From a virus: a stretch of DNA of 64,000 nucleotides. The stretch spans positions 16,509-80,508 of the IMG/VR virus record IMGVR_UViG_3300010367_000050; one strand, 5' to 3'. The position numbers and the translations under genes are program-made. The notes under the pieces were generated by a model. The model saw nothing but the letters and a program-made list of their open reading frames with translations, had not been told where the DNA came from and made no database searches. This document shows positions 3,069-34,658 of the stretch, in pieces; the first letter of the stretch is position 1, and each line of letters begins with the position of its first letter.

Positions 3069-4523
3069 TTACATCCTTTCTTGTAGATAAGCGTATACGT
3101 CCGGTGGCAAGGACGGGAAGCCCTCTGCCATCTTGAAACCTTTTGTAGACTCAATAATGATTTGGCGACCTCTGGAGTGCTTGGCACATACAGAGTTGAA
3201 CTCATCGTCAAAGTCCACATACCAGGCTGTCTTGTTGCCTGTGTTATTCTGGCGAAGTGTTCTGCCAATAGACTGTTTGATGCTGATCTCGTTACAACCT
3301 CCACCAGCATAGATAAGTGCTTCAATGTCAGGAACATCTATGCCAGTATCAAAGATGGGAGTGCATATACAAGCAAACTTCTCTCCTGACTCCAATCTCT
3401 TCAGAGTCTTTACACGGTTGCTTGCTTGACTATGAGTTAGGGTTGCTCCAGGGTAGTGTCTGTGTATACGCTTTCCATGATCAGTGTGCCTTACCAGCAC
3501 TACAGTCTGTCGTCCTGTGGCTACAAAGGCTTCAGCTAACAAGGCCACAAGTCTGTTGCGCTCGTCAGCCATCTCCACTACACCCCAGTCTAATCCATAC
3601 TTGCAGGTGGAAGCTAGGCGAGTAAGGTTCACAGGTAGAAAGACCGCATTTAGATTTGCGCTGATTCCTCTCTCGATAAGCGTATCATTCCCGAGGTTGG
3701 CTAGAACCGGACCCGTAAGACCCAATACGAAATGCTTCTGAACATTACCCTCTCGGAAGGGCGTACCCGAGAAGCCTACGCGCACGTCGCCCGTAGTGCC
3801 TTCAACCGAATTGAAATACCTATCGTCGGATAGGCAGTGACACTCGTCAGGGAACACAAACTCTGCGTCTTTCAAGAATCGAATGGTCTTGGAGAGCTTT
3901 GGAGTTTTCTTTCGCTTGGCTATGGTGTGGTACATAGCAACAGTGATATCGTCAGGCTGGAACGTTCCATCTCCAACAATTCCAATGTTACGTTCCAGAG
4001 CAAACGAAAGCCTGTGAGCTGTCTGAGTCAACAACTCCTTACGAGGAACATACACCACACCCTTTTGAAATTTGCCAGCCTTTATTGTGCCGGCCATGAT
4101 CTCAGTCTTGCCGCCGTTTGTGGCAACCTGAATGACACCTCTGCTGTATCGGAGAATCTTCCACACGGCTTCCAGCTGATAATCGCGGAGTTCAATCTGA
4201 CCCAGCTTGGGATGGGGTAGGACAAGCTGTGCTATGGACTCCACAGCCTTGGGCTCGGGATAACCTATGACCTCAACATCGTGCCCGTTCTTGCGCAGAA
4301 CGGTGACAGCTTTGGAGATCAATCCGCTGTAGAACTTGCCAGTCTGTAGAGAGAAGAAGTGCTGTTTGCCGTCCCACATTCCACTCTGGTACAAGGGACT
4401 GAAGAAGTAACCTTCCTTATGGAATGACAAATTATCATCCAACAGCTTGTAGGCATGCCGGAGGTCTCGTGGGTCATCGGCGGATAGCTCAGACCTCACA
4501 CGGTCATATGTGATTGTGATCAT
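3069..4523 (-). CDS. SF2 DExH helicase, UvsW-like
   Basis: ELRDYQ, ATNGGKT, DECH, SGT, TGIDVPDI and QSIGRTLR motifs. Start placed at MITIT because the longer ORF overlaps a terminator. Confidence 0.92.
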   Translation of the reverse strand: MITITYDRVRSELSADDPRDLRHAYKLLDDNLSFHKEGYFFSPLYQSGMWDGKQHFFSLQTGKFYSGLISKAVTVLRKNGHDVEVIGYPEPKAVESIAQLVLPHPKLGQIELRDYQLEAVWKILRYSRGVIQVATNGGKTEIMAGTIKAGKFQKGVVYVPRKELLTQTAHRLSFALERNIGIVGDGTFQPDDITVAMYHTIAKRKKTPKLSKTIRFLKDAEFVFPDECHCLSDDRYFNSVEGTTGDVRVGFSGTPFREGNVQKHFVLGLTGPVLANLGNDTLIERGISANLNAVFLPVNLTRLASTCKYGLDWGVVEMADERNRLVALLAEAFVATGRQTVVLVRHTDHGKRIHRHYPGATLTHSQASNRVKTLKRLESGEKFACICTPIFDTGIDVPDIEALIYAGGGCNEISIKQSIGRTLRQNNTGNKTAWYVDFDDEFNSVCAKHSRGRQIIIESTKGFKMAEGFPSLPPDVYAYLQERM

Positions 4524-4574
4524 TTTTCCGTCCCTAGGAATAGGGACGATTTTGGGAGTGTAAAGGTTTTCTGG

Positions 4575-4603
4575 AAAAGAGAAAAGGCCCACAACCGTGG
4601 GCC
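4575..4603 (-). terminator. Intrinsic terminator after the lysis cassette
   Basis: GGCCCAC-ggtt-GTGGGCC followed by TTTTCTCTTTT on the minus strand. Confidence 0.8.
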
Positions 4604-16422: not shown

Positions 16423-16821
16423 CTACAGAGAGAATTGAACCTGCGTGTTTGCTGTGGACTCCGTAAAGTCCGGATTGATAACTGTGTAGTTGATGGTGAT
16501 ATTGAAGTTGTTGGAAGTATCTGTATCAATGGTTATGTCAGACGCTTCAACCTTGACCCTGGGCTCCCATTTCTTGATAGCTTCCAGTATTAGGTTTGTA
16601 ATCAATTGCTTGGTCGAATCCGAGGTGTCCTCAAACTGCATACGGCACACGCGGCAGCCGAATGTGGGATTCCAAGGACGCTCTCCAGGAAACGTTTGGA
16701 GAATCTGCAACAATGAGGAGTTGATCAATGCAATAGTATTATTGCGGACATAGGTCAACCTGCCTACCGCAGCCTTGCTGATCATCGGAAATGGGAATCC
16801 AGACTGTTGACTCAGACTCAT
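16423..16821 (-). CDS. gp25/GPW-like baseplate protein
   Basis: ILQTFPGERPWNPTFGC...IKKWEPRV. Confidence 0.93.
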   Translation of the reverse strand: MSLSQQSGFPFPMISKAAVGRLTYVRNNTIALINSSLLQILQTFPGERPWNPTFGCRVCRMQFEDTSDSTKQLITNLILEAIKKWEPRVKVEASDITIDTDTSNNFNITINYTVINPDFTESTANTQVQFSL

Positions 16822-27524: not shown

Positions 27525-28601
27525 TTAGTACAGAGGCGCCAGGAAGCTGGGGAACGCCGCCGTGCTGGACTTGTCGAGGATAACGCGCGCATCACGGAAC
27601 ACGTTCATGAATCCCGTGGTGGTGGACACGTATGTGGAGTTGATCTGGCGCTGAACAATGCGGTCGGACTCCACGGTGAGCGGAACAGCGGTCAGCTGAA
27701 CGGCGGCCAGGGTGGGGTCAACCATGAGCAGTTGGTTGGCGGGGATGGTGTTATGGGTGTAGGCGTCGATGTCACGCGGAACCGGGGTCTTGGTGTTCAG
27801 GCCCAGTTCGGAGTTGCCCACCTTGGCGGTCTTGCGGAACTCATCCATGTTCAACATGTAGTTGATCATGTCCTCGTTGCCGATAACCTTGGTCCACTTG
27901 CGGTTGCGGAGCGAACCACGTACGAACACCTTGATCAGGTCAGCATAGGTCATCGTGCCGTTGACGGCCACGCCGACTGTGCCCGAAGACTCGGAACCGT
28001 CAGCCTGATCGCCGTTGATGAGAACGCTGATCAGATCGCGGGTCAGGCGCGAACCCAGCTTGATGCCCACATCCTGGAGGAAGATGGATAGCATGGAGAC
28101 GCTGGTGTAACGGATGGCTTCGTCAACCAGTTCCAGGCCGATGCCGCGCTTGCCAATGTGTACGGTCTTCTGACCGTACTTCAGCGAACCCAGTTCCATG
28201 GACTCGCCGGCACCGAGGTCTTTGGGCTCGTTGTTGAGGCCAGTGGTGTCCCAGAACGGGGCAACCTGCGTGGGCTGCGCCACGGTCTCTTCACGGATGA
28301 TGAAGTCACGATAAATGGGGCTGTTGATGAAGCCCTTGCGAATGGCGTCACGGAAAATCTCCGGCACCAGCCAGCGTACGGCCTCGTCTTGGCGGTCCAG
28401 AATCTGGGTGACGGTCACGTTGGTAGGATCAATGGCCAGTTCCTCGTACAGTTTTTCAACTGTATAGGGCGTGGTATTGTCGCAGTCCATCGTGTAGTTG
28501 TCCTTCAGGTGCTGGGACAAAGTAACGTCAAAACCCTTCTGACGCTTCGCCTCCATCTCCTTGTGGAGTTTCTTGGGTGAAAGCTGTTCCTTCCGTTCCA
28601 T
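27525..28601 (-). CDS. Major capsid protein (HK97 fold)
   Basis: Start at MERKEQ (AAGGAG SD); WLVPEIFRDAI, GE...KRGIGLELVDEAI; strong codon bias. Confidence 0.88.
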   Translation of the reverse strand: MERKEQLSPKKLHKEMEAKRQKGFDVTLSQHLKDNYTMDCDNTTPYTVEKLYEELAIDPTNVTVTQILDRQDEAVRWLVPEIFRDAIRKGFINSPIYRDFIIREETVAQPTQVAPFWDTTGLNNEPKDLGAGESMELGSLKYGQKTVHIGKRGIGLELVDEAIRYTSVSMLSIFLQDVGIKLGSRLTRDLISVLINGDQADGSESSGTVGVAVNGTMTYADLIKVFVRGSLRNRKWTKVIGNEDMINYMLNMDEFRKTAKVGNSELGLNTKTPVPRDIDAYTHNTIPANQLLMVDPTLAAVQLTAVPLTVESDRIVQRQINSTYVSTTTGFMNVFRDARVILDKSSTAAFPSFLAPLY

Positions 28602-28653
28602 GTTTGCTTGTCTCCTTGAATGAGGTTGAAGTTGCGTTGAGGGTGGGAAGGAA

Positions 28654-29034
28654 CTAGCCCCTGGGGACCACTGAGATGGTTGCGCCGGTGGCTCCACCGT
28701 TGAGAGCGATGCCGAAAGCAAGTGGAATATCCGTGGCGACTGTTGCCGGAGCCGCCGGAATCACTGTGTTTGCGGCAGACATCTTGACATTGTTGCCGGC
28801 AACGACAGCGGTTGCTCCAACCGTGACCTCGAAAATCTGAGCAGCAAAGAGTTCAACAACCACAGTGCCCTTGTACTTGTCGATGGTGATGACGCGGCCA
28901 ATGGCCCGGCCAGTCGTTGCGGTGGTAACCGTGAGGTCGCCGCTGATCTGGACCAGGTCATTCACCGCAGCCGTTGAGATGCTGGCGTGGGTGAAGCTCT
29001 GGGCTACAATCCCCTGACGCTGAAACTTGTTCAT
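28654..29034 (-). CDS. Capsid decoration/cement protein
   Basis: 126 aa Ala/Val/Gly/Thr-rich, between protease and capsid; FGIALNGGATGATISV. Confidence 0.75.
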   Translation of the reverse strand: MNKFQRQGIVAQSFTHASISTAAVNDLVQISGDLTVTTATTGRAIGRVITIDKYKGTVVVELFAAQIFEVTVGATAVVAGNNVKMSAANTVIPAAPATVATDIPLAFGIALNGGATGATISVVPRG

Positions 29035-29085: not shown

Positions 29086-30363
29086 CTAGTCGTGGATGGA
29101 AGCCACACTTGCCGTCACACGACGAGCTTCCAGCTTGGTCTGCTTTGCGGGCTCGGTCACTTCCTGCTTGGACGAACGACGGGAAAGTTCCGTTGCGCCG
29201 CACTTGGTGCAGGACAGAGGAGCAATGGTGTTTGCGCGCTCCGTGTACGAGGTGATGAAGCTCTGGGCTACTTCCAGGGACGCCGTATTGAGCATGGTGC
29301 GCATGGCATCGCTGGCCTTGTCGCCTTCGACCAGATTGTACAGACGCAGGGCTTCGGTGCGACGGTCTTTGACGATGAGCTCCAGGGAGTCCTTGGAAAC
29401 CTTGAGGCCGTCAACTTCCGTCTTCAGGGTGGTGTTCTCGGTTGAGAGCGTGGTGACCTTGGCAGTCTCGGCTGCGAGTTCCGCCGTCTTGGTCTCAGCC
29501 TGAGTCTTGAACGTATCACGTTCCGTGGTCAGAGTCACGATATTGGCGTTGGCGGTTGAAATCTGAGTATTGAAGTTGGCAATCGCGGCGAATACTTCTT
29601 CGTCGCTGGGTGCTTCCTTCTCAAGCTTCAGAACGGCAGCGAGTTTCTTGATATCCAAGGTTTCCTCCAGGGATTGTGAATTGGATGTAGTGCCTGGAAC
29701 AGTGATGGACCCATCTTGACCAATCTGCTTGGCGTACGGGTCTGCTCCCTGCCACACAACACTGTATTCATATGTACGAGTAATCTTGGTGACCAAAGCC
29801 TGTACCATACGGCCATCGACAGTGGAGCCAAGTTTCCACGCAAACTCTTCATCCTTCATCTTTGGATGAGATTTTACGTAGTCGAACTCAATTGTTACAG
29901 AGCCTGAGTTCAGTGCGCCTGAGACCAACCCCCGAGCTACCTTGGGGTCAGCCTTAGAATCAACCTTGAGCATGAAGTTCACACCGTGAGGAACGCCGGG
30001 TGTCTTCTCATCCCAGTAAGCGTCCTGCGTGGTGCCAATCCAGTTATCCACGTTCATGTCGTGGTTCTTGAGGATAACCAGGCTGTTGAACATTCCAACA
30101 GCGTCCTTCAGAGCCTGTCCGTTGTTGTAGCTAAAGTCAATTGCTCCATCACGAACAGTGGTAGCTGACAGCGCACGAAACGGAACAAGGATGTAATCTT
30201 CAGGCTTGACTGTTAGGAAGTCACGAAGCTCAGCCTCACTCATGGAGGAGAAGTCCTGGCTCAGGGACTCCGACAAATGAGCCTTCAAACCCTCAGAGCC
30301 CAGAGGCAGCAGGCTACCGCTCACCTGCATCCTGCCGCGTCCATCTTGTAGACGGATTTTCAT
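29086..30363 (-). CDS. Prohead protease fused to coiled-coil scaffold
   Basis: LKNHD...IG, LNSGSV, YEYSVVWQGADP; C-terminal coiled coil and CTKCG. Confidence 0.85.
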   Translation of the reverse strand: MKIRLQDGRGRMQVSGSLLPLGSEGLKAHLSESLSQDFSSMSEAELRDFLTVKPEDYILVPFRALSATTVRDGAIDFSYNNGQALKDAVGMFNSLVILKNHDMNVDNWIGTTQDAYWDEKTPGVPHGVNFMLKVDSKADPKVARGLVSGALNSGSVTIEFDYVKSHPKMKDEEFAWKLGSTVDGRMVQALVTKITRTYEYSVVWQGADPYAKQIGQDGSITVPGTTSNSQSLEETLDIKKLAAVLKLEKEAPSDEEVFAAIANFNTQISTANANIVTLTTERDTFKTQAETKTAELAAETAKVTTLSTENTTLKTEVDGLKVSKDSLELIVKDRRTEALRLYNLVEGDKASDAMRTMLNTASLEVAQSFITSYTERANTIAPLSCTKCGATELSRRSSKQEVTEPAKQTKLEARRVTASVASIHD

Positions 30364-30550: not shown

Positions 30551-31399
30551 TCATTCAACAGAGTACGCCGGTGTTTCATTTTCAGCATAAAAATCCTTGA
30601 ATACTGTACGGTGGCGGCACTCCGGGTGGAATGGGGGCACTTCATAACCGAGGGCTTGTAACTCTGCGTCAGAGGAGTTTTGCAAGTCTTCATAACTGAT
30701 CTTGCCTTTCAAGAACGGCATGAATGATTCATAGTCCTGGCTTTGGGTCAGAGAGTCCAACCGCGACAATGACGACGATAACGTGAATACACGTCCAATC
30801 ATGTTACGGCAAAACTCACAGGTCTTCAGATCGTCAGGGCCAGCAATCTCAAACGTCTGAACATGGGCTTGGCGCATGTTGTTTAGCTGACCAAACACCC
30901 TGGACCTCGACACGGTTGTGTTCACGATCTGACGAATCTTGGCTCTGTCATTGCCTAGTAGGTCTCCAAAAGTGGAGATGAATGCGTCCATCTCCTTACG
31001 GTCAGTTGCGATCGATCTACCGTTTTCAATAAATGCCTTCCGTATGTAATCCATCACCTTGGTCTTCAACTCTTCGCTTTCAACGTACTTGGCAATATAG
31101 CTCTGAGAAGCGAGGTCTAGGAACTTGATGGCACGATAGTCAGGGAGACGCAGAAACGAGCGAGGCAATTGTGAATCAGAGGCCACCAAAGCCCTGTAAA
31201 TCTCCGAAGTCTGTGACGCTATCATGTTCTTGAACCGGCGAGAGTTCAACTTGATGCCGTATTCCTGGGTCAAAATGGAGTACAAGCTATTGGATATCTG
31301 CGTAAGGTCAGCCGGATTGAGCTCAGCTGAGCCAAGATAGTGTATGATTCTATCAAAGGCCGAGGCTTCGGCGTCATCGAGTTGTGCCAGAATTATGCT
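30551..31399 (-). CDS. Head morphogenesis domain (Mu gpF/SPP1 gp7-like), probably expressed fused to the portal
   Basis: IVNTTVSR, DLKTCEFC, PPFHPECR; frame is open 38 codons upstream of the TTG at 31285, back to the portal stop; no SD at that TTG. Confidence 0.85.
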   Translation of the reverse strand, partial: SIILAQLDDAEASAFDRIIHYLGSAELNPADLTQISNSLYSILTQEYGIKLNSRRFKNMIASQTSEIYRALVASDSQLPRSFLRLPDYRAIKFLDLASQSYIAKYVESEELKTKVMDYIRKAFIENGRSIATDRKEMDAFISTFGDLLGNDRAKIRQIVNTTVSRSRVFGQLNNMRQAHVQTFEIAGPDDLKTCEFCRNMIGRVFTLSSSLSRLDSLTQSQDYESFMPFLKGKISYEDLQNSSDAELQALGYEVPPFHPECRHRTVFKDFYAENETPAYSVE

Positions 31400-32990
31400 A
31401 AAGATACCTCCGATATTTGGATTTTAGTTCGTCTTCCTGTTTGGACAGAGACACAGGCGGCATTCCAGCATCCGTGCGAAGCGTGTTGAGTACCTCAATA
31501 GGAGTGTCCCGCTTGAAGTAGTATTGCTTCATCTCCTTGTTGTAGGCGAACTGAACAGACGCTTGTTCCTTGGGCTGCTTTTTCTTGGGGTTCTTTGGGG
31601 TGTTGTCTGTCTTTCCACCGGTACTCGGGCGTTGATCCAGGTTCTTGTCTTGAGCATTCGGGTCCACACGGGGTTCAGCTTGGTCAGGCACAGCATAACC
31701 AAGTCTGTTTGCCTTCTCCGTCTGGTCAATGACGCCACCGTTGTACAGAGCTTCGGCGTTGGCGATGTCGATCATCTCAGCCTGAGCCTTCTGAAGGTTA
31801 CTCAAGGCCTGTGATTCGTTGAAGCCTACGCAAACTTGCGCTGTGATGCCAGCCATTAGCAAGTCCAAGCCCCATCCAAAGTCCAAGCTCTTACCCACTA
31901 GTCTCTGATAGTTGGTAAGCTGAGACACCATCTTGGAGTGCACCACGCTGGCATATGTTTCTGTAGTGCTGTACGTTCTGCCGTGCATGGCGGGGTCTGC
32001 CATGATCGCAGAGAACAGCTGTTCCTCGTTCATCTTGAACAGATCGTTGATGCCGCGCACGTCACTAGTGACACTCTTCACGTCGAACTCAAACGCACCC
32101 TGAAACCCAGCGGCGATGCCGTCTCCAAAGGAAGTCTTCAGGTTATCTGTAACCTGGTTCAAATAGGCCAAGCAGCGAGCAGTGTATCTGTCCTGATTCT
32201 CACCGGGGTTCTGTTTTGGAGGAGTGACCTTGTAAGTCATCAGACCCATGATACCAACCTTCTTGATAACCTTGTTGATGTTACGAAGCATCGCCTGCTG
32301 TAGAGCTACCGGCTGGAGAGCAGCAATGAATGGAGGAACAGCGTATGGGCTGTCTTCGATAGTCTCAGCGTTGGCGTAGAAGTAGGTCTTGAGGTTGAGC
32401 TTTACAGCGTTGCGGTAGTTATCCAAGGCCAAGACAGTGTTACGGGGAACCTGCACGGGATAATATCCCATACCGTCCTGCCTAGGTACCCACCGAATGT
32501 CTCGCACGGGTACAAAGAACACTTTGTCAATACCAGATAGATTGTTGGTAGGCACCCACTCAGTGGAGATAGCTCCCATGCGAGCGACCTGAGCAAAGAT
32601 ACCGTTGATCAGTCCGTCTGGGCCTCCGCCAAACGGATACATGACGTCAGCGCGGTCGCGGATACGCTGTACCGCAGCTTCGATCACTGTGTCACTCTCG
32701 CCCTTGACGCTCAACAGATGACCCGTGTTCCCTAGTTGCACGATGTGACCCACAGCCTGCCGGATATCGGGATTGATCAGGCTGAGATTGGCGATGGCTT
32801 CATAGATAGCGATAGGCCACTTGCGGGGCAGAGTGAAGTCATACTCACCCTTCAACTCTGAGATTAGCAGTCCAGGGTCATCAGGTGCCGATACGCGAGT
32901 GACAGGCAGTCCACTAACGTCCGTTGTCTGCGTCACTGACTTCGTTGTATTTTTGGCTCGAAGCCCTGTTATCCAATCTCGAAATCCCAT
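31398..32990 (-). CDS. Portal protein
   Basis: 530 aa directly after the large terminase; SPYAVPP, STTETYASV; typical size and position. Confidence 0.85.
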   Translation of the reverse strand: MGFRDWITGLRAKNTTKSVTQTTDVSGLPVTRVSAPDDPGLLISELKGEYDFTLPRKWPIAIYEAIANLSLINPDIRQAVGHIVQLGNTGHLLSVKGESDTVIEAAVQRIRDRADVMYPFGGGPDGLINGIFAQVARMGAISTEWVPTNNLSGIDKVFFVPVRDIRWVPRQDGMGYYPVQVPRNTVLALDNYRNAVKLNLKTYFYANAETIEDSPYAVPPFIAALQPVALQQAMLRNINKVIKKVGIMGLMTYKVTPPKQNPGENQDRYTARCLAYLNQVTDNLKTSFGDGIAAGFQGAFEFDVKSVTSDVRGINDLFKMNEEQLFSAIMADPAMHGRTYSTTETYASVVHSKMVSQLTNYQRLVGKSLDFGWGLDLLMAGITAQVCVGFNESQALSNLQKAQAEMIDIANAEALYNGGVIDQTEKANRLGYAVPDQAEPRVDPNAQDKNLDQRPSTGGKTDNTPKNPKKKQPKEQASVQFAYNKEMKQYYFKRDTPIEVLNTLRTDAGMPPVSLSKQEDELKSKYRRYL

Positions 32991-33032: not shown

Positions 33033-34658
33033 CTAACTGAACAATACCGGTAGGTTCACTGAATGCTTGTAGCGGGCTCTTGCTAGCTGTGCTATCAACC
33101 AGGCCAACACCAAGTCGTCGTTGTACCCGTCATTAGCTCTTGGGTTAGGCTTGCGAGTTTCCTGAAAATTGAACACCAACATCTCGTTGAGCAAACGCAA
33201 ACTGTTTATGAGAAGAACTGCTTCAGGAATATGCCCTTTCTGGCGTAATTCCTCATGCTCTCTGATGAGCTCTTCACCTGCTGAGATAAGTACCGGGCGG
33301 TTGGCTGAGGTCGTGGTAAATCCAACAATCAGTGTCTCTTCATTGGTAACCGTTTGAGTGTTCGCCTCTTCATCGATGGTAGCATCTTCCTTGATGTAAG
33401 TGTACAGATTGGGATAGTTCTTGTCAATCATCTTCTGTACAGTTACAAGACCAACACCGTTCCGCTCGATTACAACCTGTCCCCAGTTGTAGTACTTTCC
33501 AATAGCGAACAGATACGACGCAAACACGTTTGGCTTGCAATGAACCCGCATCTCTGCCGCTTGCTCGCCGGTCTCCCACTCCACTACTTGTATAGCATGA
33601 AAATCACTTCCGTCTCCAGTAGCGGAGTCCGCTCCAATGATGTATAGCTTTCCAGGAACAGGCTTCTTGAAGATGTACAGCCCCTCGGCCTTCTTCCCAT
33701 AAAGTCCATCGTAGTCATCAAATCTCTCTGGGGCATACAACACTTTACCAATTTTACGAGTGCGAAGCACCTCAGACCAATCAGATAAAATGGTAGTGTC
33801 GAACACAGGACGGCCAGAGTTCAAAAAGTCGCAGTCAACCTCCTGAGCGCATAGTGCCGGGCCAAGTTCCCGCCTCTGCATAGCATACCACTTCTCATCC
33901 CGCTCAGGGTGCATCTTCCAATGAAGCCTTATGGGATTGAAGTCTGACAGCTTACCTACGGCGTCTCTCCACTTGCCAGCAAACCAATTGCCTAGGCCAT
34001 TAGCTGTAGAGATAGCAATGGCTTGTCCGCCCGTCGACAGAGTGGGAAAAGCCGCACCCCAAATCTTGTCAATCCACCTTACAAAGGCAGCTTCGTCAAT
34101 GATCAGAAGTGATAGACCTTCTGAACGGCCTGCCTCTTCAGAAGTCGGCACAGACATGATTCTGGAGTTGTTCTCGAACACAATTGTACTGGTGTTCCAC
34201 TGCGCTGCGAGAGGGCCTTTTAGCCACAACGGTAAATGACGGTAGGCATACTTGATTTTGTCGAGGAAGCGTTTCGCAGTCTCTTCCTTGATCGAGATGA
34301 TGACCACGGTCTTATCCGCACGAAACATCGCGTACCAGAGAGCAAATAGAGCTACAAGCCAGGATAGTCCCATCTGACGAGGCTTCAACACGATGTTGAA
34401 GACGTGAAGCAGAAACTGCTTCAGAGCAATCCTCTGGAAGGGATACAGCTTCATAGGGATACGGCCCTTGACTGGGTCTTGTATGTAGCAGTAATTATGT
34501 ATGAAATGAATGGGGTTGGCCGCACACCGTAGCCACTCCTCGACCTCTGGACCCTTTGGGTCTCTACCAGGTAGTTCAGAGAATCCCCACGATAACCGCG
34601 TGGAGTCAAACTCTATCTCATATTTTTTGATCTTGATCTTGCCTAGCAGCTTTTTCAC
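33033..34658 (-). CDS. terL: Terminase large subunit
   Basis: LYPFQ, KPRQMGLS (Walker A), LIIDEAAF (Walker B), ISTANG, IGAD, IERNGVG, DDLV. Confidence 0.96.
   Translation of the reverse strand: MKKLLGKIKIKKYEIEFDSTRLSWGFSELPGRDPKGPEVEEWLRCAANPIHFIHNYCYIQDPVKGRIPMKLYPFQRIALKQFLLHVFNIVLKPRQMGLSWLVALFALWYAMFRADKTVVIISIKEETAKRFLDKIKYAYRHLPLWLKGPLAAQWNTSTIVFENNSRIMSVPTSEEAGRSEGLSLLIIDEAAFVRWIDKIWGAAFPTLSTGGQAIAISTANGLGNWFAGKWRDAVGKLSDFNPIRLHWKMHPERDEKWYAMQRRELGPALCAQEVDCDFLNSGRPVFDTTILSDWSEVLRTRKIGKVLYAPERFDDYDGLYGKKAEGLYIFKKPVPGKLYIIGADSATGDGSDFHAIQVVEWETGEQAAEMRVHCKPNVFASYLFAIGKYYNWGQVVIERNGVGLVTVQKMIDKNYPNLYTYIKEDATIDEEANTQTVTNEETLIVGFTTTSANRPVLISAGEELIREHEELRQKGHIPEAVLLINSLRLLNEMLVFNFQETRKPNPRANDGYNDDLVLAWLIAQLARARYKHSVNLPVLFS

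Follow-up and report, generated by a model that had tools for sequence, protein, structure and literature searches.

A virus of 80.5 kb in IMG/VR (IMGVR_UViG_3300010367_000050), with a completeness estimate of 99%, carries at the 3' end of its portal gene a sequence that resembles the autoregulatory +1 frameshift site of prfB, the gene for release factor 2 (RF2). We analyzed a stretch of 64,000 nucleotides of this record (positions 16,509 to 80,508), which we refer to as the window. The portal gene is followed in the +1 frame by the coding sequence of a MuF-like head protein that has no start codon at the junction; the site at which the 2 frames meet is conserved in diverged relatives, and the 2 parts, when joined, are colinear with natural portal-MuF fusions. 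From this comparative and structural evidence it is probable that a prfB-type programmed +1 frameshift, in which a Shine-Dalgarno (SD)-like GGAGG and a 3-nucleotide UAU spacer precede a slip from CUU to UUY, yields a portal-MuF fusion protein as a minority product.

The cassette at the 3' end of the portal gene

The portal gene, which is located on the minus strand, ends with the codons AAA TCC AAA TAT, followed at 31412-31397 by CGG AGG TAT CTT TAG C. The corresponding region was also read as DNA in 4 relatives, giving 5 junctions in total when the window is included. The elements of the cassette and the reading frames that meet there are the following.

31406..31411, minus strand: SD-like GGAGGT, complementary to the anti-SD sequence ACCUCC of 16S rRNA; GAGGT is invariant in 5 of the 5 junctions read as DNA
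31404..31406, minus strand: TAT, the 3-nucleotide spacer, which occupies the E site while CUU occupies the P site; TAT in 5 of 5
31400..31403, minus strand: putative shift site CTT_T, at which tRNA-Leu would move from CUU to UUU; CTT in 5 of 5, with T or C as the next base in 5 of 5
31398..31400, minus strand: TAG, the A-site stop codon, with C (31397) as the next base
31398..32990, minus strand: portal gene in the 0 frame (phrog_3753, E = 1.2e-79, residues 58-479), with an ATG start and AGGAG 7 nucleotides upstream; ends with TAG
31286..31399, minus strand: start-less tract of 38 codons in the +1 frame, beginning with SIILAQLDDAEASAF; it encodes the N-terminal part of the MuF-like module and is conserved both in relatives and in uninterrupted fusions
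30551..31285, minus strand: MuF/gp7-like open reading frame (ORF) with a C..C ... PP.H..CRH motif; ends with TGA at 30551-30553

The portal ORF encodes a product of 530 amino acids and 58.8 kDa, for which a Pfam scan gave no portal family match at E<=0.01. In the +1 frame, to which AGC at 31399-31397 belongs, the nearest upstream stop codon is a TAA at 31426-31424, located 20 nucleotides before the C of CTT, and the frame continues for 38 codons without ATG, GTG or TTG up to a TTG at 31285, and from there to the TGA. Both frames are open over 23 nucleotides only, from the TAA of the +1 frame to the TAG of the portal frame, and by inspection CTT_T was the sole codon in this overlap able to re-pair in the +1 frame. 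A shift at CTT_T would give a conceptual product of 812 amino acids and 91.0 kDa, with 282 codons added after the shift, and a predicted tryptic junction peptide, YLSIILAQLDDAEASAFDR, in which Leu from CUU is followed by Ser from AGC. The portal end, the 38-codon tract and the length of 812 amino acids for the conceptual fusion had all been described in the original prediction and are confirmed by the sequence, and so is its statement that the ORF at 30551..31285 has no SD site of its own, since no SD-like core was found in the 20 nucleotides before TTG 31285. The genes of this phage commonly use strong SD sites of the AGGAG/GGAGG type, which were identified for 31 of the 48 ORFs in the window.

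It was noted that GGAGGTATCTTT occurs only once in the 64 kb. With one mismatch allowed, 18 of 100 shuffled sequences contained at least 1 match, and the single occurrence alone is not beyond chance; the significance of the site therefore rests on its conservation in relatives. A search with the pattern RGGRGGNNNCTTTRR was uninformative, as this pattern misses the window's own site, which begins with CGG. Other in-frame combinations of an SD-like sequence and CTT-Y were found for 8 of the 106 CTT-Y codons in the window, and these are without a full GGAGG, a stop codon or known conservation. One of the 8, GAGGTG CTT C at 33767 (minus strand), lies inside the gene for the large terminase (TerL), has no stop codon and probably arose by chance. 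Downstream of the site, RNAalifold gave no convincing conserved structure (-5.2 kcal/mol, with no supporting covariation). In the 64 kb of the 80.5-kb record that were scanned, which is the window, ARAGORN identified no tRNA gene, and the phage is thus without an obvious tRNA-Leu or suppressor tRNA of its own for the shift site.

The junction in related phages

A scan of IMG/VR with a single portal protein as the query gave no match, and relatives were found with an alignment of portal proteins as the query. A portal search identified 26 relatives at 48% to 64% identity, all of which were unfused and had a length of 528 to 565 amino acids. Together with the window they formed a single clade of 27 portals with 100/100 support in the portal tree, in which the relatives with DNA were separated by branch lengths of 0.4 to 1 substitutions per site. 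In each of the 27 clade members, the window among them, the 2 modules are encoded in different frames with no uninterrupted ORF. Among cultured phages, no match was obtained in a DNA search and nothing above 31% identity in a protein search, and no close-clade prophage was found in the GTDB representative genomes.

The 4 relatives that were read as DNA (L002/L045, L003/L047, L004/L048 and L046) have portals that are 51% to 60% identical, and in all 4 of them the MuF ORF is offset by +1 from the portal frame at the position seen in the window. Their junctions compare with that in the window as follows.

Window: CGG AGG TAT CTT TAG C
L002: GCG AGG TAT CTT TGA C
L003: AGG AGG TAT CTT CGG C
L004: CGG AGG TAT CTT TGT C
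L046: CGG AGG TAT CTT CAA G

In an alignment of the 5 junctions with a mean column identity of 59%, GAGGTATCTT was the only invariant run of more than 2 columns, and it was present once per locus, always at the junction. An SD-like element, a spacing of exactly 3 nucleotides with no length variation and a CUU followed by a base that permits re-pairing were found in all 5, the slip base being T in the window, L002 and L004 (CTT-T) and C in L003 and L046 (CTT-C). The window (UAG-C) and L002 (UGA-C) carry an A-site stop codon with C as the next base, which is absent from L003, L004 and L046. The codons AGG, TAT and CTT are minority codons, which account for 9% to 23% of the Arg codons, 33% to 46% of the Tyr codons (TAC being the commoner) and 9% to 18% of the Leu codons, respectively. 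That they are nevertheless invariant over such long branches points to selection at the nucleotide level, beyond conservation of the Arg-Tyr-Leu sequence. Protein-level conservation changes frame at the motif: over the 8 codons upstream, the BLOSUM62 score per column was 2.26 in the portal frame versus 0.51 in the +1 frame, and over the 12 codons downstream it was 1.57 in the +1 frame versus -0.53 in the portal frame, which is full of stop codons.

All 27 clade portals, the window included, contain R-[Y/F]-L at the point of the frame change, preceded by R, A or G. The spacer encodes Tyr in 25 of the portals and Phe in the other 2, and Leu is located at the shift position in every one of them. 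The codon following CTT was a stop codon in 9 portals, Gln in 11, Arg in 6 and Cys in 1. In the 18 portals that lack the stop codon, the portal frame runs 8 to 10 residues further, which represents an out-of-frame reading of the conserved N-terminus of the MuF module. The stop state requires at least 3 changes in the portal tree, and the 4 classes of A-site codons together require at least 9. The A-site codon is hence labile, with the SD, the UAU, the CUU and the following pyrimidine (Y) being fixed. It was also noted that the sense codons in the A site are of low usage in their own loci, with CAA representing 14 of the 105 Gln codons (13%) in L046, TGT 3.7 per 1000 codons in L048 and CGG 9 per 1000 codons in L047. 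For this small sample, the values are consistent with a low-usage sense codon that acts as a "hungry codon" in place of the stop.

These patterns bear on 2 expectations of the original prediction. The recurrence of an SD-CTT-stop site in related portals was borne out for the SD-CTT part, which was found in 5 of the 5 DNA junctions, and the stop codon was present in 9 of the 27 clade members and missing from 18. The suggestion that the availability of release factor 1 (RF1) sets the ratio of the 2 products found no support as a property of the cassette: L002 has UGA, which is an RF2 stop codon, 18 of the 27 members have a sense codon and the stop state has changed at least 3 times. RF1 could set the ratio in the window phage at most, with L002 relying on RF2 and the majority of the relatives on neither factor. 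Because the stop codon varies or is absent among the relatives, control by RF1 is not a conserved feature, and judged from the sequences the stop would be an optional enhancer that is not essential.

The first start-like codon in the +1 frame after the site was located at +118 nucleotides in the window and at +58 nucleotides in L003, neither of which was associated with an SD site, and in L002, L004 and L046 the ATG, GTG or TTG codons that occur in frame are scattered and lack good SD sites. The 5 junctions have no start codon in common, either by position or by identity. The N-termini assigned by gene callers are arbitrary, yielding a protein of 224 amino acids (P0001) for the window, a TTG start located 2 codons ahead of "GIF" in the L002 type and, in P0006, a GTG start beyond the site. 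The apparent N-terminal peptide "GGIF" is the +1 reading of the cassette, GGA GGT ATC TTY. The MuF genes of the clade are at present called as truncated or with arbitrary starts, and should be annotated as the joined +1 product.

Logan contigs from 2 soil metagenome runs of one study, one of which is possibly the source of the window DNA and the other a second sample, were identical over 31200-31600 with no indel, and the 3 T nucleotides at the site are therefore real. No RNA run was included among the sequencing runs listed as containing the window sequence. Two other pairs of ORFs on the minus strand overlap in different frames, 2807-3337/3069-4592 (268-nucleotide overlap, with a DNA helicase, phrog_16, encoded at 3069-4592) and 4829-5380/5313-5672, and the downstream members of both pairs are without SD sites. 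With regard to the suspicion that single-base insertions had occurred elsewhere in the window, PHROG scans of these 2 pairs gave no sign of split genes.

Natural portal-MuF fusions and the head module

Beyond the clade, at 31% to 41% identity, we identified 49 portal homologues of 740 to 916 amino acids that are uninterrupted portal-MuF fusions, of which P0080 carries PF04233 and P0093 is named as a member of the SPP1 gp7 family. The original prediction had named an uninterrupted fusion in relatives as an argument against frameshifting; such fusions were found at this distance and in none of the 27 clade portals. The conceptual product of 812 amino acids could be aligned to all 49 fusions with no gap at the junction, as exemplified by ...KYRRYL|SIILAQLDDAEASAF in the window opposite ...FQKFYF|AEVYPIIGGASESAL in P0040. 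A search with a hidden Markov model (HMM) of the MuF part against 1.84 billion representative sequences gave 2316 relatives. Among the best 150 of the 2316 matches, most were the C-terminal parts of proteins of about 750 amino acids or more, and about a third started within the first 20 positions of the profile, next to the junction.

The MuF ORF matched PHROG families annotated as head morphogenesis and minor head protein with E-values of 1.6e-7 to 4.6e-5. The match to PF04233 (Phage_Mu_F) was below the threshold (E = 0.11, 13.7 bits versus a cut-off of 29.6), and 4 of 9 clade members matched this family at E<1. An AlphaFold2 (AF2) model of the +1 ORF, with a predicted local distance difference test (pLDDT) score of 74, matched minor capsid and head morphogenesis domains in BFVD with E-values of 2e-7 to 3e-3, including a fusion protein of 816 amino acids. 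For the MuF part, a Foldseek search found no significant match in the PDB.

To stand in for the conceptual 812-amino-acid product, the natural fusion P0046 was modeled with AF2 (pLDDT 75.8). In the model, the portal core extends to about residue 440 and is followed by a largely disordered linker at about residues 441-533, and the MuF part opens with a helix at residues 534-571. The residues aligned to the shift site (REYF|AAVY, 544-551) are located in the middle of this helix, and the portal ORF at its end and the +1 ORF at its start would thus each encode one half of a single structural element. A split helix, as predicted by the model, fits a single polypeptide and is a poor fit to a separately initiated protein. 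By the same model, the last approximately 50 residues of the "portal" ORF seem to belong to the start of the MuF module and not to the portal fold. It was also noted that the portal residues at about 447-477 (31560-31650, minus strand) include a stretch (KNLDQRPSTGGKTDNTPKNPKKKQPKEQ) that is basic and of low complexity. This stretch is conserved throughout the clade and has its counterpart, in the P0046 model, in the disordered linker by which the portal core is connected to the MuF helix.

Stop codon readthrough was considered for 4 distant unfused loci, L049:2156, L050:2372, L051:4019 and L056:587, in which the next ORF is in the same frame after a single TAA. In these loci, the downstream ORF has its own GAGGAG and an ATG about 25 nucleotides downstream, and they therefore represent ordinary separate genes.

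The head module in the window is arranged on the minus strand in the order TerL, portal, MuF-like protein, protease/scaffold and major capsid protein. In addition to the portal and MuF-like genes described above, it consists of the following genes.

33033-34658, minus strand: TerL (PF03237, phrog_2), directly upstream of the portal gene
29086-30363, minus strand: protease/scaffold (phrog_8158)
27525-28721, minus strand: major capsid protein

Mechanism, alternative explanations and known systems

The prfB consensus is CTT_TGA_C with an upstream SD (PMC3711429). Liao et al. (PMC2377451) found that P-site slippage on CUU_U is dominant in shifting of the prfB type, that early release of the E-site tRNA raises shifting, with UAU and UUU being among the 4 fastest-releasing E-site codons, and that a hungry codon or a stop codon in the A site likewise raises shifting, although neither the A-site nor the E-site enhancer is essential. 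The conserved and labile parts of the junction match this scheme: the E-site UAU or Phe codon, the P-site CUU and the Y are kept, and the A-site codon varies.

We infer that the ribosome would shift at this site in the following manner. With CUU (Leu530) in the P site, the GGAGG(U) located 6 bases upstream would pair with the 16S anti-SD sequence at a spacing too short for the complex to relax, the E-site tRNA on UAU would leave early, and the peptidyl-tRNA-Leu would slip from CUU to UUU, or to UUC in relatives. By standard pairing rules, the pyrimidine after CTT should allow +1 pairing of a tRNA-Leu that has a GAG anticodon with UUU or UUC. In the window phage, the UAG-C in the A site would give the slip extra time, and in most relatives a low-usage sense codon stands there instead. 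Translation would then go on in the +1 frame as Ser-Ile-Ile-Leu, giving the 91-kDa fusion beside the 59-kDa portal protein that ends at UAG. The C-terminal crown of the portal faces the capsid interior, and the MuF-like domain would hang inside the capsid from the portal C-terminus behind the long disordered linker; with a shift of low efficiency, it would be placed on a minority of the 12 portal subunits. The original proposal that an SD/3-nucleotide spacer/CUU cassette of the prfB type joins the portal to a gpF/MuF domain on some of the subunits is thus one for which the comparative sequence evidence argues strongly.

Several observations weigh against this interpretation. The junctions were read as DNA for 5 of the 27 clade members, with the other 22 deduced from called proteins, and the anti-SD sequence and tRNA pools of the host are assumed. 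In the 18 of 27 relatives without a stop codon after CUU, the strongest known stimulator of prfB shifting is gone, and the efficiency may be low in these phages. In the window, the ATA and ATT located 10 and 13 nucleotides after GGAGG make a weak translation start possible in principle, and the GTG, TTG or ATG codons near the site in L002, L004 and the P0006 lineage could add independent initiation.

The main rival explanation is accordingly one in which the MuF-like protein is made independently by weak initiation, with GGAGG as its ribosome binding site and a start or restart on ATA at 31396-31394, ATT at 31393-31391 or CTG at 31390-31388. The geometry in the window, where the SD is followed by a stop codon and by these ATA and ATT codons at 10 and 13 nucleotides, is like that of translational coupling; the P0006/P0030 lineage is deduced to have GTG GTG at the same 10 and 13 nucleotides, L004 has GTG-ATG at +19 and +22 nucleotides from CTT, and the codons in both P0006/P0030 and L004 were used by the gene callers. 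Weak initiation could also suffice for a protein that is needed in few copies. However, the codon located 10 nucleotides after the SD core is ATA, CTG, CAG, CAA and CAG across the 5 junctions, and GGAGG alone would do for initiation, leaving the invariant TAT-CTT-Y at synonymous sites unexplained. Furthermore, the wider family is overwhelmingly fused, and according to the structural model a free protein would begin in the middle of a helix. We consider independent initiation unlikely for these reasons. We find it harder still to see in the conserved 10-mer a signal of a different kind, be it part of a promoter, the binding site of a protein or a site of RNA processing, with the MuF ORF beginning at TTG 31285 or Met 31222 and the 38 codons left untranslated. 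Such an ORF corresponds to the 224-amino-acid product of the gene caller, and TATCTT is loosely like a -10 element, but the 38 codons are stop-free and conserved as protein in both relatives and fusions, TTG 31285 has no SD and the motif is located exactly at the conserved frame change in every relative.

The same fused product would be obtained by correction at the RNA level, through transcriptional slippage or editing that removes one U from the short U run at the site. Productive transcriptional slippage needs long homopolymer runs, typically of 6 to 9 or more nucleotides (reviewed in PMC5009743). There are 3 T nucleotides in the window and only 2 in L003 and L046 (CTTC), and a conserved SD-like element at an exact spacing of 3 nucleotides is a feature of ribosomal shifting (PMC2377451), which makes a correction of the RNA highly improbable. 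The least credible possibility of all is that the assembly or the sequencing is wrong, or that 1 nucleotide was recently inserted with loss of function, in what would truly be a plain or decaying in-frame fusion gene. This caveat had been raised in the original prediction since the deletion of one T gives a plain fusion, and plain fusions are indeed what the more distant relatives have. It is refuted by the identical contig from the second sample and by the 4 diverged relatives, which share the +1 offset although branch lengths of 0.4 to 1 separate them; in addition, the fusion is interrupted at the same position in each of the 27 clade members, and both parts are under protein-level conservation.

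A programmed +1 frameshift at this junction would most closely resemble that in Escherichia coli prfB (AGG GGG UAU CUU UGA C), with which the window shares an internal SD, the same UAU spacer, the same CUU_U, and a stop codon followed by C. As with prfB, no conserved RNA structure was found downstream, and L002 even has the UGA-C of prfB. However, the gene in the window encodes a phage portal, and the shift would add a C-terminal domain near the end of the ORF, whereas in prfB it occurs after codon 25 and gives access to the body of the protein. The stop codon also differs, being UAG (read by RF1) in the window and replaced by a sense codon in 18 of the 27 relatives. Since the portal is not a release factor and the stop codon is variable or absent, there is no release-factor feedback loop, and the purpose is likely to be a fixed ratio of 2 structural proteins. 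All cases of +1 frameshifting at CUU-stop in RECODE are prfB genes (PMC10885494).

The +1 sites at the ends of structural genes in SPP1 (tail tube gp17.1/gp17.1*, CCC_UAA) and in the Listeria phages PSA, A118 and A500 (tsh and cps, CCC_UGA) provide a fraction of the subunits with an additional C-terminal domain, at a fixed ratio (PMC6316719, PMC5009743). They are like the window in that the shift occurs at the end of a structural gene, but the slip is on CCC (Pro) with no SD-like stimulator, a pseudoknot is present in PSA cps, and the proteins are tail tube and capsid proteins rather than portals. The lambda G/GT tail assembly chaperones are a further case in which recoding sets the ratio of a short and an extended protein, through a -1 shift on a heptanucleotide slippery site, often with a hairpin, in contrast to the +1 shift on CUU_Y with an upstream SD that is proposed here.

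The same modules in the same order are found in one polypeptide in the in-frame portal-MuF fusions of Microbacterium phages in clusters EA3, EA5, EA8 and EB (PMC7302621). These and the other fusions of about 800 amino acids differ from the window in having MuF on every portal subunit with no recoding, whereas the default product in the window is the free portal. In SPP1, the MuF family protein gp7 enters the procapsid in few copies by binding to the portal protein gp6, and supports the start of infection (PMC6316719). The gp6/gp7 pair has the same function pair as the window, although the 2 are separate proteins that interact non-covalently and gp7 has its own start codon. By analogy, the fusion in the window would be the covalent equivalent of the binding of gp7 to gp6.

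Full-text literature searches gave no report of recoding at a portal-MuF junction. To our knowledge, SD-stimulated +1 frameshifting at CUU_U in bacteria is known essentially from prfB alone. We lean toward the view that this clade of soil phages took over the prfB cassette to make a minority portal-MuF fusion, and that two thirds of its members work stop-free, as a natural example of SD-driven +1 frameshifting on a sense codon. If true, this would be a second independent and phylogenetically conserved use of the cassette, which would then be a portable module that serves as a ratio-setter in a viral structural gene and not as a feedback sensor. The clade would also provide a natural series of A-site codons (UAG, UGA, CAA, CGG and UGU) that separates the core of SD, E site and P site from the A-site pause, and frameshifting would explain how the MuF domain comes to be present on only some of the portal subunits in these phages.

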